This document shows, piece by piece, positions 4,335-9,845 of a DNA stretch of 13,205 nt. The position numbers were made by a program, and so were the translations under genes. Position 1 is the first letter of the stretch. Every line of letters begins with the position of its first letter. Source of the DNA: a virus (taxonomy: Duplodnaviria; Heunggongvirae; Uroviricota; Caudoviricetes); IMG/VR virus record IMGVR_UViG_2671180849_000011. One strand, 5' to 3'. The notes under the pieces were generated by a model. That model was not told the DNA's origin. It made no database searches and worked only from the letters and a program-made list of their open reading frames with translations.

Positions 4335-5231
4335 TTATTTAAACTCTAAAATGCCTTTTTTATTTTTTCTAACATTTCTCCACAATATTTCGGGATAATC
4401 TCCGCAGGTTTTATCTAACAATATTTCGAATCCCATCCCAATAAGCTTATTTGCAAAAATAAAAACAGGTCTGGTTAAATGCCAGTATTCTTCCGGTTTC
4501 CAGATTTCACCCTCTATTTTCCCTTTATGTTGGCTTACCTCTTCTGCGGTGTAAAAATCCTCCTGAATCTTTGACAAAAGGATCGGGCGACGTTTGTTTA
4601 AATCTTTGTATTTGCTTTCCCACAGTGATCGCATTATGCCTTTAGCCTCACTCTCACCCAGGACAATCCAGCCCCCATCGGTTACATCTTTCACAGGACG
4701 GCCCCGGCGTGGCTTGTCACTAACAGCGTTAATTTGAGGCGCTTTAGTGTCTTGGGTAGGCAATTGCACCACCTTAGCCTTTTTAGCTTGCTGTGTGGCT
4801 TGTTTTGGGGCTTCTTGCGGGTGTTTCTCTTCACTACCTGCATTGCTCATAGGTTGTATTCCTTGAGCGTCACACATTTTGCAGATTTGAGAAGGAGTAA
4901 TTAACAGTTTGTAATGATTAGATTTGCCTTTACTTTTAATTACTGAAATAAGCCCGGCATTTTCCAGAGTTTTGATAGATTCAATGATTTTTCTATCACT
5001 CACACCACATATTTTTGCTAAGGTCTGCTCTGAGATAAATATTTCTTGCCCGTTTAAATGAAAACCTGCCATTTTTCCATAGATTGTTACCTCTATCAGG
5101 TCTAAATTAAATCGCTCTTTTGTTTTTCCAGTCTTTTTATTAGCAATTGTTGTTGCTACTGGTTTATCAAAAGTATACTGAATGAGGCGTTCGAAATGGG
5201 GATTAAAAACCTCCCCGTAATTACTTGCCAT
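4335..5231 (-). CDS. winged-helix DNA-binding protein (298 aa), replication-initiator-like or antirepressor-like
   Basis: ATG at 5231 preceded by GGGGGA; N-terminal wHTH-like segment ISEQTLAKICGVSDRKIIESIKTLENAGLISV; central P/Q/K/A-rich linker with KPRRGRPVK (AT-hook-like); architecture recalls lambda O-type initiators (from memory, unverified). Confidence 0.5.
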   Translation of the reverse strand: MASNYGEVFNPHFERLIQYTFDKPVATTIANKKTGKTKERFNLDLIEVTIYGKMAGFHLNGQEIFISEQTLAKICGVSDRKIIESIKTLENAGLISVIKSKGKSNHYKLLITPSQICKMCDAQGIQPMSNAGSEEKHPQEAPKQATQQAKKAKVVQLPTQDTKAPQINAVSDKPRRGRPVKDVTDGGWIVLGESEAKGIMRSLWESKYKDLNKRRPILLSKIQEDFYTAEEVSQHKGKIEGEIWKPEEYWHLTRPVFIFANKLIGMGFEILLDKTCGDYPEILWRNVRKNKKGILEFK

Positions 5232-5244
5232 AGTTCCCCCACAG

Positions 5245-5460
5245 TTATTTATTAATGTTGTTGGTGTATTTAGCCAGCTCACGCTCAAGGCGGAGACGAT
5301 TCAGTTCTAAAATTGCCGCTTCAATGTGTGGATATTCTCCTTTGTGTTTACGAATAAATGCATAAACGGAAGTTTTTCGAAAGTTACCTTTAAGCACGTT
5401 CTCGACGATTTCGTCAGTAGTCCAGTTTACCAGCTGGCTTATCGGTCCGGTTTTAGCCAT
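5245..5460 (-). CDS. hypothetical small protein (71 aa)
   Basis: ATG 5460 preceded by SD AGGAGA at 7-nt spacing; stop 13 nt before the next start; basic, possibly DNA-binding. Confidence 0.5.
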   Translation of the reverse strand: MAKTGPISQLVNWTTDEIVENVLKGNFRKTSVYAFIRKHKGEYPHIEAAILELNRLRLERELAKYTNNINK

Positions 5461-5592: not shown

Positions 5593-5742
5593 TCAGCTAT
5601 TTGCGAGATTGTCAACAATCTTTTTGTATTTATCTATCATTTTTTCTTCAAGGTTGTCGATTGCAGCTACTCCGGCTATGTAGGCAACACCGCACCACAG
5701 TACAGCCAGGTTGATGATCGCTATAGCGTCGCTCAGTTCCAC
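5593..5742 (-). CDS. small single-pass membrane protein (49 aa, GTG start), not in ORF track
   Basis: GTG 5742 preceded by GGAGG at 5-nt spacing; translation VELSDAIAIINLAVLWCGVAYIAGVAAIDNLEEKMIDKYKKIVDNLANS is one hydrophobic helix plus charged tail; stop TGA 5593-5595. Confidence 0.3.
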   Translation of the reverse strand: MELSDAIAIINLAVLWCGVAYIAGVAAIDNLEEKMIDKYKKIVDNLANS

Positions 5743-5786
5743 GTTGACCTCCGGATCTGTTTCTCCCACTATCTATAATCTTATCA

Positions 5787-5808
5787 TATTGACAACCAAT
5801 TGTCAATA
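5787..5808. promoter_or_regulatory. palindromic operator overlapping candidate leftward promoter
   Basis: Perfect inverted repeat TTGACAA (5789-5795) - CCAA - TTGTCAA (5800-5806), arms extend to 9 bp; on the - strand TTGACA, 17-bp spacer, TAAGAT; a third half-site TTGTCAAT at 5929-5936. Confidence 0.4.
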
Positions 5809-6424
5809 GGAATCATTATCATTTAGGCGAGCTATAGGTACAAACAAGTCCACAGCAAAGGGGTAAGCATTATTAATGGCCCCTACCGTGTCAAAACCAA
5901 AGTCACTTATAGCATTTATGCAATAAGATTGTCAATGGCCCACAAGGGAGGGAGAGCACTTTTTGCCTTAAGCGCTCTAAAATCGATTCTAACGCGATTT
6001 AGAGGTCAGGTAATGCAATTGCACTACTCACACAAGTTAATGCAGCCAGAAGGCCATTTAGGGGCCTTATTTTCGATTTCTGAGCGTCCTGTTACGTGTG
6101 TGCATACACGGGCGCGCGGAATCCCTCGCTTAAACGGTCCGGATTGGAAACAGAAGTCTCTTATCCGGACTCCACATTATATAGCTACGTGCTATCGCAC
6201 TACGCTACCCACACACAGGCCGACGTAGTCGGTTTAGCTGTATAGCTAAAGTCACAGAGTGACCCACACACAGATTGCCTAAAGAGTCGCTAATGCTCTT
6301 TAGGCTTTCATTTGTGGGTTAAGCTTTTCCCTTAGAAAACCTTCCCCACTCTCTGATCCCTCCCCATTCCCCTTGGGGGGTTAGGGGGGGATCTGTTGTG
6401 TGATCTATTAATTTATCTATTAGA

Positions 6425-6645
6425 GTGAGAAATTTTCAGGGGTACTAGTGAGAAATCTTCGGTAGTAGTGGTGAGAAATTCTCAGGGGTGTGGGTAGGTA
6501 TGGTGGTTAAGTAGTGAGAAATCTTCAGTAGTTAGAGGCTGTGTATCATGGGGGCAATGACTGCAAAACGGGAAAGCATGACTGTATAAACACACAGGTG
6601 TGAAAATTCTTCACAGGTTAGCGACACCGGAAAAATCTTCAGTAG
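6425..6645. repeat. iteron-like direct repeats, six copies of about 18 bp (consensus GTGAGAAATCTTCAG(G/T)(G/A)G)
   Basis: Copies at 6425-6442, 6448-6465, 6471-6488 (exact 23-bp phasing), 6514-6531, 6598-6617 (degenerate), 6630-6645; preceded by G-run GGGGGGTTAGGGGGGG 6375-6390. Confidence 0.6.
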
Positions 6646-6655
6646 TGTCTATCTG

Positions 6656-6753
6656 CATATGTGGGAAATACACCCTTATTGACCTATTTTGACTAGCAAA
6701 CCTCTCTCTTCTCTCTTTGCTCTGATTTCCTCTCATGTGTGGGAAATATGCAT
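6656..6753. repeat. second repeat family CAT(A/G)TGTGGGAAATA (two copies) flanking a CT-rich tract
   Basis: catatgtgggaaata at 6656-6670 and catgtgtgggaaata at 6734-6748; pyrimidine-rich tract 6701-6734; a related copy aaaatgtgggatata near 7047-7061. Confidence 0.45.
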
Positions 6754-7488
6754 ACCAACACCCGTTGATTTTATCAATAGCTATGTTGACCGGGCATCAT
6801 AAGTGTGGCCCCTGAGGCAGTCCATCCTTCCCTCACACAGGACAATGAATATATAAAGAACATGAAAGACTGTTCACACCAACACGCCGATAAATTGCCT
6901 GAAGAGGCTTACATGGGGTTATTGTTGTGTGGGTAATGGTGATCATGCTAACAGATTATGTTAATCAGATGTAAATTCCGATTTTGTGGTCTGCATGGAG
7001 CAAACTATACTGGTTAAATGATCAGGGGAATGACTACAAAACAATCAAAAATGTGGGATATAGCCATCTACACGTCTAATGTGCTGTGTGGGGTGTTAGT
7101 GCATGCTTACATGTAAGTCATTGATTTGAAGGGTTGGGAAAATTGCATTTAACATAATAGATCTTATCTACACTAATAAAGCGAACTACAAAATCTGATT
7201 TAAAAATCATGATCAGTGGGCACAGAATTTACGTACAGCCACCTGAATAAATAATGTGCACAACATACAGCAAAGCTTAAGAATTAACATAATAGCAACG
7301 TGGTCAGTAGTGGTGTGATATTTGAGAATTGTTAGAAGAAAAAAGGGAGGTGGGGGAGCGCCTGCCTGGCACCTCAGACGAGTTACCCATAAGCTCAAAT
7401 ACCGCTAATGGATATTTCTGACACCCACACCCAAGACCGCTTTCAGCACATAGCCATATAGCCACACAGGACCGCACAGGATGCAATT

Positions 7489-7698
7489 GTGATAACAAAA
7501 AATGGGGGTGTAATAGGGTAGGTCACCTTTCATCAAAATCACTTCTACGACGTTTCCAGAGTGATAACAAGAAAACAGGCCTCTAAGATTATCTGTGCCT
7601 CGTTTTTAGCTTTTTGTGTGGTTACCAGGTGAAGAGGAAATGTTAAAAACTGTTCATTTTATGCACAAACTAGTCAGGGTGATACCACAAAATGAGGT
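7489..7698. repeat. third repeat family GTGATA(A/C)CA-A-rich-GG, three copies
   Basis: gtgataacaaaaaatggggg 7489-7508, gtgataacaagaaaacagg 7561-7579, gtgataccacaaaatgagg 7679-7697; DnaA-box-like TTATGCACA at 7659-7667. Confidence 0.45.
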
Positions 7699-7887
7699 GT
7701 AAGAAATCCAGCTGCAGATAATCTTGCAGCCAGATTTTGCAGTTTTTTAGGGTATGTTAAATTTGACAAAAATAGAGAAAAGGCTTATTAAGCTAACTTA
7801 TTGATTTTATTAGTATTACGAAAAAGGGTTACACCCTCTCTCTTACTCTGTCAACCGGGCGGTTGTGGCATAAAACGGATTAAATCA

Positions 7888-7946
7888 ATAAATAGGCATT
7901 AAATAGGGGATAAATAGGGGTTAATTGAGGGATAAATAAAAAGGGG
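7888..7946. repeat. five tandem 11-bp phased repeats (A/T)TAAAT(A/T)GGGG
   Basis: Units start at 7888, 7899, 7910, 7921, 7932 (exact 11-bp period); last unit merges into the terminator stem. Confidence 0.55.
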
Positions 7947-7959
7947 CCGTGATGGCCCC
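7931..7959 (-). terminator. rho-independent terminator of the membrane-protein gene
   Basis: Stem GGGGCC (7943-7948) / GGCCCC (7954-7959), loop GTGAT; - strand tail TTTTTATTTATC (complement of 7931-7942); 8 nt past stop codon 7968-7970. Confidence 0.6.
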
Positions 7960-7967
7960 CTGGTAGG

Positions 7968-8498
7968 TCAGAACAGTTTTTTGCTTTTTCTCCAACTAAC
8001 GCCGCGTTTGCCTATGCTCAGCCAGCCGCCAGCGAATCGGGTACCTGCGGTAACACTAGCTCCCCTGGTACCTACATGTGCATAAATACCTGCTCCACTG
8101 CTACCACCGCTTCTACGGCTTTTTCCGCCATCGATATCAAGGAGAACACAGATCGCATTCCACCAAAAGCCGATCACCCATATTGCAAATGCTAAGCCTA
8201 AAACGCCCCAGGTGACCGCCCACCCTTCCAGACTAGTGGGGAAGTAGAAAGCATTGAGAACAGCATTTATAGGGCGGATCAGGAGAAAATCTATAAAACC
8301 AGTATCCACATGAAACGGTCCATTGCCGAACTTGCTACTGCCAATAAATAAGGTAGCAGGGTAAAAGAAGATAGCCATTGCCCAAGGGCCAATAAGCAGG
8401 ATAGTAGCCCCGAACTGTGCGGCCTCCTTAAAGAACATTTTTACTATTGCTTTAAAAAGCTTTTTGTTTTCTGATTCTTTATCTTTCTGAAATAACAT
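7968..8498 (-). CDS. polytopic membrane protein (176 aa) with Gly/Ser/Arg-rich C-terminal tail
   Basis: ATG 8498 preceded by AAGGGG; about four hydrophobic segments; own terminator; position and type fit a superinfection-exclusion or abortive-infection moron (inference). Confidence 0.6.
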   Translation of the reverse strand: MLFQKDKESENKKLFKAIVKMFFKEAAQFGATILLIGPWAMAIFFYPATLFIGSSKFGNGPFHVDTGFIDFLLIRPINAVLNAFYFPTSLEGWAVTWGVLGLAFAIWVIGFWWNAICVLLDIDGGKSRRSGGSSGAGIYAHVGTRGASVTAGTRFAGGWLSIGKRGVSWRKSKKLF

Positions 8499-8555: not shown

Positions 8556-8816
8556 CTATTTATTCTTCTTAAATCTCCCATCCTCCTTTCTCTCGATATT
8601 GTGGTAGTCGGCATAGGCTTTCAGCCTTCTGTGCACGGTGGCGATCCCCACACCGAAGGTTTTAGCGATAACCTGTCGTGGTGTTCCCTCTTCAACCATC
8701 TTGTACATCTGTTCCGCTACATCCATTTGTGCGGCTATCTCCATTTGCTTTGCCTTAGCTTTAATTTCAGCTATCAGCTCTTCCCTCAGTCTCCTGATAT
8801 CTTTAGCCCCCGTCAT
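8556..8816 (-). CDS. small HTH DNA-binding regulator (86 aa)
   Basis: SD GAGGAG 3 nt before ATG 8816; N-terminal predicted coiled coil; C-terminal HTH TPRQVIAKTFGVGIATVHRRLK of the resolvase/Mor-like type (by eye). Confidence 0.6.
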   Translation of the reverse strand: MTGAKDIRRLREELIAEIKAKAKQMEIAAQMDVAEQMYKMVEEGTPRQVIAKTFGVGIATVHRRLKAYADYHNIERKEDGRFKKNK

Positions 8817-9336: not shown

Positions 9337-9365
9337 TTGACAATGTGAGTAAATACTGATATAAT
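9337..9365 (+). promoter_or_regulatory. perfect-consensus sigma70 promoter (TTGACA - 17 bp - TATAAT) with AT-rich upstream region
   Basis: TTGACA 9337-9342, exactly 17-bp spacer, TATAAT 9360-9365; AT-rich 9305-9335 (UP-element-like); faces the capsid genes. Confidence 0.65.
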
Positions 9366-9373: not shown

Positions 9374-9508
9374 TACCGTGAATCATTTAGCGAAGGTGGT
9401 TTACCGTATTTTCCTCCAAAGTAACGGCGACCAGGTAGCGGTGCCGCCTTATAAATAACACTACCCTGATCATCGTTGAGTGGTCGATTAATTCTCCTAT
9501 TGGGCTAG

Positions 9509-9517: not shown

Positions 9518-9845
9518 CAGTTTTCTTTTGCGGGTTTTCTGTGTGGGTAGCTATCCCGAAAGGTATTTCCCCGCTGATGTGACCGCAGCCTGAACTGATT
9601 CGGGGGAGTGCCTTTCGTGATAGTGCTCTCTAGCAACCGTAACCATGCAGTGAACTATCAGCCAACTGTTGTTGGTTTTCCCCATATGGAATAGCCCCCG
9701 CTTGGACGGTGCGGGGCTATCTCCCTCTCCTTATATCAATCCCCCTTTAGATTTCCGGCATAACTTTTCGGCCCGAGCCTGTCGTGGTTTGAGAGGTTAT
9801 ACCTGAACCCTTTGAGGGGAGTTAATTTAAATCGCAGGTGATCAA

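Follow-up and report, generated by a model that had tools for sequence, protein, structure and literature searches.

The 13,205-nucleotide stretch of DNA from IMG/VR record IMGVR_UViG_2671180849_000011 (the window) is a complete, circular Escherichia coli plasmid of about 13.2 kb and carries, next to the terminator of a predicted membrane-protein gene, an array of short direct repeats in which the hexamer TAAATA recurs every 11 bp. The array is a genuine, constrained cis element that is found throughout the plasmid family. Every relative retains it, and a DNA-binding protein probably docks there. Our tentative reading of the sequence comparisons is that the array may be a same-face site for a sequence-specific protein, beside or together with sites of the integration host factor (IHF) type.

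Structure of the array

Reading of positions 7600–8300 showed five 11-bp units that span 7888–7942 (Table 1), and Tandem Repeats Finder reported a period of 11, 4.6 copies, 72% matches and a score of 53. The hexamer TAAATA stands in phase at 7889, 7900, 7911 and 7933, that is, in units 1, 2, 3 and 5. As a null model, the window was shuffled 2000 times with its dinucleotides preserved. Exact TAAATA formed in-phase runs of at most one copy in 1989 of these shuffles and of two copies in the other 11. The array is far beyond chance because three in-phase hexamers were never reached.

The array is thus real and non-random, but it is less regular than first described. The original prediction, made from the letters of the sequence, was of (A/T)TAAAT(A/T)GGGG repeated five times at an exact 11-bp period. 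The period was confirmed, but only units 2 and 3 match the consensus exactly. The GGGG that had been assigned to unit 5 is shifted by 4 nt from the phase of the array and belongs to the terminator hairpin, of which it forms the 5' half. Blocks of four G residues are not the defining feature of the array, and the alternation with such blocks was not conserved, as the spacers switch to CCCC or CCCA in relatives.

A coding role was rejected because the 11-bp period is not a multiple of three and because no stop-free stretch longer than 72 codons occurs in 6230–7968. An RNA gene was also rejected as a candidate. The array is unstructured as RNA on both strands; Rfam gave no match at gathering thresholds in the whole window and none at E ≤ 5 in 5700–8000, and no tRNA or tmRNA was found in the window.

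Table 1. Coordinates of the array and of the plasmid features discussed in the text
Feature	Position	Strand	Description
Unit 1	7888–7898	+	ATAAATAGGCA; ends GGCA
Unit 2	7899–7909	+	TTAAATAGGGG; exact consensus match
Unit 3	7910–7920	+	ATAAATAGGGG; exact consensus match
Core array (units 1–3)	7888–7920	+	TAAATA at exact 11-bp period
Unit 4	7921–7931	+	TTAATTGAGGG; degenerate, TTAATTG
Unit 5	7932–7942	+	ATAAATAAAAA; in-phase TAAATA; minus strand is the U-tract template TTTTTATTTAT of the terminator
Invariant leader	7880–7887	+	TTAAATCA; 8 nt directly 5' of unit 1, outside the 11-bp phase; identical at all loci examined
Inverted repeat, left arm	7798–7807		TTATTGATTT; overlapped by the perfect IHF consensus
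Inverted repeat, right arm	7882–7891		AAATCAATAA; leader plus unit 1; 10-bp repeat
IHF consensus, perfect	7794–7806	-	AATCAATAAGTTA; in all alleles
IHF consensus, one mismatch	7883–7895		AATCAATAAATAG; TAG for TTR; overlaps unit 1 and the right arm
Interior between the arms	7808–7879		62–72 bp; strongly variable between alleles
Small hairpin with A/T run	7821–7837		Inside interior
Invariant TGTCAAC	7849–7855		GTTGACA on the minus strand
Palindrome CAACCG-GG-CGGTTG	7852–7865		Inside interior
Terminator hairpin GGGGCC-GTGAT-GGCCCC	7943–7959	-	Ends transcript of the membrane-protein gene
Membrane-protein gene (predicted)	7968–8498	-	176 amino acids; sole gene adjoining the array
HTH_7 protein		-	86 amino acids; operon ends at the array; conserved in the family
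Region without open reading frames	5800–7968		About 2.1 kb
Origin-like module	6388–6650		G/C-rich block, GATCT-type 12-13-mers, iterons
GATCT-type 12-13-mers	~6388–6425
23-bp iterons	6423–6532		GTGAGAAATCTTCAG type; four in tandem; further copy at 6626–6646
Rep/O-like initiator	4335–5288	-	HTH_36 domain
Tape measure protein	266–2392	-
Major head protein, Dit-like tail tube initiator, tail completion protein		+

Array alleles in the plasmid family

The array region was extracted from about 45 loci of the plasmid family, which yielded at least 17 alleles. All alleles begin with TTAAATCA-ATAAATAGG(C/T)A-TTAAATA and finish at the same hairpin, and every one of the loci holds at least three to four contiguous in-phase hexamer units at the 11-bp period. 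Absence from homologues would have counted against a functional array; the array was present in every homologue found. Copy number differs between relatives, a point that the original prediction had proposed to check, and the number of hexamers ranges from three to eight, the largest being an allele with eight units in two blocks (locus L143).

The core in relatives consists of three or four contiguous units with spacers GGCA, GGTA, GGGG, CCCA or CCCC. The window-type allele is described by GGCA / GGGG / GGGG / TTAATTGAGGG / AAAAA, a six-unit allele (L008 type) by GGCA / CCCA / CCCC / GGGG / TTAATTGAGGG / AAAAA, and a third (L015 type) by GGCA / CCCA / GGGG / GGGG / AAAAA. Unit 4 (TTAATTG) is missing from some alleles, and others have inserts of 19–133 nt to the right of it that are sometimes followed by more TAAATA units. 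Variants of unit 5 include GGAAATAGAAAA and GTAAATAGAAAA. The insert at locus L001 is an inverted-orientation duplicate of an unrelated segment. The inserts were considered as extra copies of the plasmid's own iterons and this was rejected, as no 9-mers were common to the inserts and the iteron block.

When the 13 distinct unit types were pooled, positions 2, 3, 4 and 6 never varied, positions 5 and 7 varied in the TTAATTG unit only, and positions 1 and 8–11 each showed three to four different bases. Two of about 14 minimal changes fell within the six hexamer positions of the 11 (p ~0.002 in a rough binomial estimate). Here the 6-bp core and the 11-bp period are fixed, and the G/C-rich spacer and the copy number are free to vary; this is the signature expected if a short motif is recognized in the DNA duplex from one side of the helix. 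The same-face protein binding that had been proposed earlier predicts this pattern of invariant hexamer, invariant phase and free spacers. Spacers flip between G4 and C4, which disfavors a strand-specific RNA role, favors recognition of the hexamer in duplex DNA and makes it unlikely that the G-runs themselves are functional. The same flips excluded a GGA-type protein sponge or other strand-specific RNA motif.

The array is the only repeat set of the large non-coding region whose motif stays constant across the family. It lies between variable flanks, namely the interior of the inverted repeat on the left and the membrane-protein gene (63% identity) on the right, and the array start and the hairpin are fixed.

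The array and the terminator of the membrane-protein gene

The terminator scan detected a minus-strand hairpin with an 8-pair stem (six GC pairs) and a 5-nt loop followed by TTTATTTATC. The stop codon of the membrane-protein gene is at 7968–7970 and the hairpin starts 9 nt past it. The predicted RNA fold had a free energy of -15.2 kcal/mol (z = -2.3). A GC-rich hairpin followed by a U-tract, located 3' of a stop codon on the same strand, is what defines an intrinsic (Rho-independent) terminator, and no T-run follows the hairpin on the plus strand. The terminator of the membrane-protein gene that had been predicted is therefore real and is on the minus strand. The last unit of the array was thought to provide part of the stem; instead, unit 5 in minus orientation supplies the U-tract TTTTTATTTAT, and the stem lies outside the array. 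The array is fused to a terminator only in the sense that its last unit is the T-tract. Unit 5 alone takes part, and units 1–4 are dispensable for the terminator, which sets the array apart from an ordinary intrinsic terminator.

The hairpin had an identity of 1.000 in the full-length family alignment, with the exception of an extra G in the stem at locus L140, and it is retained even where the adjoining gene is a different allele (173–236 amino acids). The membrane-protein gene forms a hypervariable cassette: its alleles encode 173, 176, 179, 195, 225 and 236 amino acids and share a mean nucleotide identity of 63%, and one recombination boundary coincides exactly with the invariant terminator hairpin. 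Locus L012 has a distant homologue (46% identity) of the membrane protein in a different element, and no array was found there.

The proximity of the terminator raises the possibility that replication slippage grew its A/T-rich shoulder (CCCC plus TTTTTATTTAT on the minus strand) into an 11-bp minisatellite, the array being a neutral by-product that does no harm and so persists. The minus-sense unit CCCCTATTTAT does resemble the 3' stem of a hairpin plus a T-tract, units are gained or lost whole, and the inserts described above are tolerated in the right half of the array. Moreover, the array has no known partner protein or phenotype and divergence of the plasmid backbone is low. We nevertheless regard a neutral origin as unlikely, given that the hexamer is invariant and the spacers are free across the 13 unit types, that no allele has lost its three to four contiguous units despite the location of the array in an indel hotspot, and that the array start is fixed beside the variable 62–72 bp interior.

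Sequences to the left of the array

An invariant 10-bp inverted repeat lies to the left of the array, its right arm formed by the leader and unit 1. A scan with the IHF consensus WATCAANNNNTTR found a perfect match at the left arm and a match with one mismatch at the right arm (Table 1). In relatives, the N positions of the perfect match vary and the specified positions are fixed. Window-wide, however, IHF-like matches with at most one mismatch were not enriched (24 found vs. 19 expected). As minus-strand RNA, the inverted-repeat segment folds with a free energy of -27.3 kcal/mol (z = -4.5). It was treated as a DNA feature because its outer stem never varies and thus provides no covariation evidence.

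A promoter scan found none adjoining the array. The invariant GTTGACA on the minus strand was considered as part of a conserved promoter beside the array, but it has no acceptable conserved -10 sequence, and a plus-strand TTGACA-17-TATTAA (7764–7792) was not conserved in relatives. A Xer/cer-type resolution site was also rejected; by the dif/cer consensus, only a sequence resembling a XerD arm (TATGTTAAAT, at about 7753–7762) was present and there was no XerC arm.

Predicted curvature and host nucleoid proteins

Curvature was predicted with a wedge model that used Bolshoy-Trifonov-type parameters and was calibrated on A-tract controls, which gave 70–79 degrees per 31 bp. The array of the window had a predicted bend of 41 degrees per 31 bp, which is the 98th percentile of the window, and all alleles fell between 36 and 44 degrees. 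The predicted bend depended on phase: periods of 8 and 13 bp reduced it to 15 and 24 degrees, respectively. However, the native value was also attained by 12% of unit-internal shuffles, and several other sites in the plasmid were predicted to be more curved. The intrinsic curvature that had been proposed is thus plausible but moderate in this model, about half that of the A-tract controls, and would be insufficient to account for the invariant hexamer.

A second phased repeat, (T)TTGAC, with a period of about 11 bp, lies about 1.2 kb left of the array, with two copies in the window (6680–6700) and about four in L016 and in L140. The curvature predicted for the plasmid peaks at this repeat, with 68 degrees per 31 bp near position 6690.

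These predictions bear on the view that the array is a curvature element or a site for host nucleoid proteins, in which phased AAAT tracts bend the DNA or nucleate H-NS, IHF or Fis. H-NS- or IHF-like binding had been suggested in the original prediction. Such a site could have an architectural or silencing role, or could insulate transcription where the membrane-gene operon ends, and would need no dedicated protein of the plasmid or of a phage. The phase-dependent bend shared by all alleles and the two IHF-type matches are consistent with this view. In addition, GATAAAT in the units corresponds to seven of the ten positions of the published H-NS motif tCGATAAATT (PMC2094087); the best units (GGGATAAATA) match at that level and the GATAAAT core is present in two units, which we take as a lead only. 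Still, curvature or H-NS would accept many A/T substitutions and yet TAAATA is invariant, and the G/C-rich spacers break the A/T tract that H-NS favors. Together with the modest size of the bend, the number of shuffles that reach it, the greater curvature predicted elsewhere in the plasmid and the lack of enrichment of IHF-like matches, these observations make a nucleoid-protein element an unlikely explanation for the array.

Promoter-like and origin-like explanations

The units could be read as NWTAAATA, that is, as tandem plus-strand -10-type boxes similar to the T4 late sequence TATAAATA. A phage-modified or sigma-like factor would then direct transcription antisense through the membrane-protein and HTH_7 genes toward the capsid operon. 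The units depart from TATAAATA at the first one or two positions only, a 161-amino-acid protein of the plasmid has sub-threshold matches to sigma-70 region 3/4, and the structural operon is downstream on the same strand. However, all units lack the first T of TATAAATA, their sequence being A/T/G-W-TAAATA. A copy of TATAAATA itself is present at 9450–9457. The 'late' motif TGGTAAAATA reported for phage rV5 by Kropinski et al. (PMC3606486) is actually an extended -10 sequence; no unit is within two mismatches of it, and the motif was not enriched (21 found vs. 18 expected). Phage rV5 was reported to lack homologues of gp55, gp33 and gp45 (PMC3606486), which also counts against this reading. Lastly, the capsid operon is already preceded by a perfect sigma-70 promoter (TTGACA-17-TATAAT) at 9337–9365. 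A role as promoter boxes is very improbable.

The plasmid has a separate origin-like module, and every family member has a 23-bp tandem repeat about 1.4–1.5 kb to the left of the array. At least seven unrelated iteron sequence types occupy this position across the family. The Rep proteins are mosaic (26–99% identity), and the iteron type tracked the N-terminal helix-turn-helix half of Rep in most comparisons. For example, L013 and L016 have the same iteron and Rep proteins that are 94–99% identical in the N-terminal half and 24–30% identical in the C-terminal half; L139 vs. L140 is an exception to the correspondence. Conservation within the plasmid is lowest in the origin-like block (63%) and in rep (68%).

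Plasmids whose Rep proteins are 26–99% identical all have the same array hexamer. Rep was excluded as the partner of the array because the specificity of a hypervariable initiator cannot reside in a hexamer that never changes. Rep binding, one of the functions suggested by the original prediction, was therefore discarded: the iterons change with Rep and the array does not. The array also lacks the features expected of Rep iterons (tandem repeats of about 17–23 bp beside an A/T-rich unwinding element and near rep), having a period of 11 bp and lying 2.6 kb from rep; the module at about 6388–6650 does fit them. Although the array consists of tandem A/T-rich direct repeats with IHF-like sites nearby, in a large non-coding region of a Rep-encoding plasmid, a role as Rep iterons or as a DNA-unwinding element is the least probable explanation that we considered, as a complete origin-like module is present 1.4 kb away and its iterons mostly follow the Rep N-terminal domain.

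A perfect DnaA box (TTATCCACA) is present within an inverted repeat (GCTAGTTATCCACACAG ... CTGTGTGGGTAGCTATC) at 9585–9640, in a 700-bp intergenic stretch between divergent operons. GATC (the Dam site) was not enriched, with 51 sites found vs. 52 expected.

Proposed function of the array

The array would act in cis as a DNA site, as neither RNA nor coding sequence. We propose that a small DNA-binding protein may read the hexamers in a base-specific manner and bind head-to-tail and cooperatively to the three to eight copies of TAAATA, which, at a spacing of 11 bp, would lie on one face of the helix. Two putative IHF sites to the left, one overlapping unit 1 and the other about 85 bp upstream in inverted orientation, could help the array to form a compact nucleoprotein complex within the plasmid's non-coding control region. 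The terminator-proximal unit would double as the U-tract of the membrane-gene terminator. Candidate partners may include the 86-amino-acid HTH_7 protein, another of the several conserved small helix-turn-helix proteins encoded by the plasmid, or a protein of a helper phage.

Several points weigh against a protein-bound array. We infer the binding, and the identity of the protein, from sequence, and the partners named above are candidates only. Neither the promoter region of the HTH_7 operon nor any other part of the plasmid was enriched in TAAATA, and rV5-like and other phages yielded no array-like sequence. A search of the open reading frames with Pfam, PHROGs and PADLOC recognized no partition ATPase, integrase or small terminase. 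Bare conservation of the array start carries little weight because the plasmid backbone is only 4–9% diverged in the whole-plasmid comparison. The argument is carried instead by the contrast between hexamer and spacer, which is partly circular because units beyond the inserts were identified by their hexamer. The alleles could also stem from recombination of a few ancestral units rather than from independent mutation.

The function that such a complex might serve is a guess: the array could mark the plasmid for packaging or for maintenance, each of which we consider, roughly, unlikely to quite unlikely. More specifically, the array and the IHF-type sites could be a pac-like or helper-infection-sensing signal of an undescribed class of plasmid-borne phage satellites of E. 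coli, where binding of a helper-phage protein to the phased TAAATA hexamers would lead to packaging or activation of the plasmid. We consider this quite unlikely.

Comparison with known systems

One formal likeness is to parC of plasmid R1, where ParR binds 11-bp direct repeats, about five per cluster, cooperatively on one face of the helix. Both lie on small enterobacterial plasmids and consist of about five direct repeats in tandem, with a period of 11 bp. However, the R1 repeats flank the promoter of the adjacent parMR operon and the array is at the 3' end of an operon, the sequences are unrelated, and the array plasmid has no ParM-, ParA- or ParR-like gene.

In the P' arm of lambda attP, three arm-type Int sites stand in tandem after the IHF site H', and the array likewise has a putative IHF-type site with at least three direct repeats, about one helical turn apart, directly after it. 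In contrast to attP, the array is on a plasmid that has no integrase or excisionase and is a free circle in all complete records. The arm-type sites suggested by the original prediction were ruled out, as no integrase or excisionase domain is encoded. The array was placed in neither the parC class nor the arm-type class because no partition or integrase gene is present.

Lambda cosB combines the R sites of gpNu1 with the IHF site I1. The array resembles cosB and other small-terminase sites in having short repeated putative protein-binding motifs and a putative IHF bend in non-coding DNA of a phage-related replicon, and a helper-dependent element would require a packaging signal of some kind. 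However, the plasmid has no small terminase gene, the array region has no similarity to phage DNA in GenBank phages or IMG/VR, and the ends of the plasmid contigs show no sign of fixed termini.

Pho-box and OmpR-type sites are 7-bp direct repeats with 4-bp spacers and hence have an 11-bp period. The array shares this geometry, and only the geometry, in its conserved core of about 6–7 bp and free spacer of about 4–5 bp arranged head-to-tail. Those sites are promoter-proximal activator sites, whereas no conserved promoter adjoins the array. The cholera toxin promoter provides another comparison. A preprint (bioRxiv 10.1101/2021.05.14.444153) describes copy-number-variable TTTTGAT heptad repeats whose copy number differs between strains and which recruit transcriptional regulators. 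As described there, they are like the array in being a short A/T-rich tandem repeat with strain-variable copy number and differ in their 7-bp period, their position upstream of a known promoter, their sequence and the organism.

Database searches did not reveal a similar array outside the plasmid family. None was found in the phage records, IMG/VR, other plasmids or GTDB species representatives searched; the array start itself had 0 matches in IMG/VR and GTDB species representatives. A blastn search of 5700–8000 against 50,697 phage records gave no match, and the sole match of a short query was to a generic terminator of rV5-like phages (AAAAAGGGGCCGTTTGGCCCC in FV3), which no array adjoins. 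A loose pattern scan of IMG/VR returned at least 120 A/T-rich matches and was uninformative, and a stricter pattern with S in the spacer returned three unrelated perfect minisatellites. These are in unrelated viral contigs (L160 at 8700–8800, L161 and L162), have an 11-bp period and the same core, and consist of GCGGTTAAATA repeated four to five times or ATAAATAGGCC repeated three times; they were found solely through the search pattern.

The plasmid family

Exact-protein look-up detected circularly permuted contigs of 12.9–15.3 kb, and megablast detected complete circular E. coli plasmids of 13.2–13.7 kb with 90–95% identity. A circular form was concluded because contig break points were scattered and contig ends showed k-mer-length overlaps, as a circle gives. 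The family was present in 7 of 5426 complete E. coli genomes, with 0 chromosomal matches, and was typed as non-mobilizable. The assembly collection indexes the HTH_7 protein in 228 blocks, of which 194 have contigs of 10–20 kb, and all homologues found were from E. coli. One record of 39,610 bp (NZ_CP043822.1, locus L142) is a head-to-tail trimer of the 13.2-kb unit. One of the copies carries structural genes that are frameshifted or broken up, and the record represents a true multimer or concatemer or else an artefact of long-read assembly.

Among phages, rV5-like myoviruses come closest to the structural genes, but the relationship is distant, with identities of 51% for the Dit-like protein, 26% for the tape measure protein and 24.5% for the major head protein. 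No terminase, portal, sheath or tube genes were recognized in the plasmid, and PADLOC defense-system models gave nothing meaningful. We found no paper in the literature that describes these plasmids. The plasmid looks like an undescribed plasmid-borne phage satellite or assembly-interference element.

Within the region without open reading frames is a segment of about 1 kb (6701–7750) that has no open reading frame longer than 72 codons, no Rfam match and no phage similarity. It is purine-rich on the plus strand and contains the dispersed repeat families CACACAGG, GTGGGAAATA, GTGATAACAA and YATTGATTT. Exceptional conservation of this segment (6700–7750) was considered and rejected, as its 92.6% identity is the backbone level (91–96% for most genes).

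Significance

Taken alone, the array is of modest interest, as it would be another set of helically phased direct repeats on which protein probably assembles on one face of the DNA. Its value is in its setting, a common family of E. coli plasmids with phage structural genes and an incomplete set of virion genes. Phage therapy and biocontrol make use of rV5-like phages. Should these plasmids be satellites of such phages, or elements that interfere with their assembly, conserved cis sites such as the array would be natural handles on how the plasmids are recognized, maintained or packaged.

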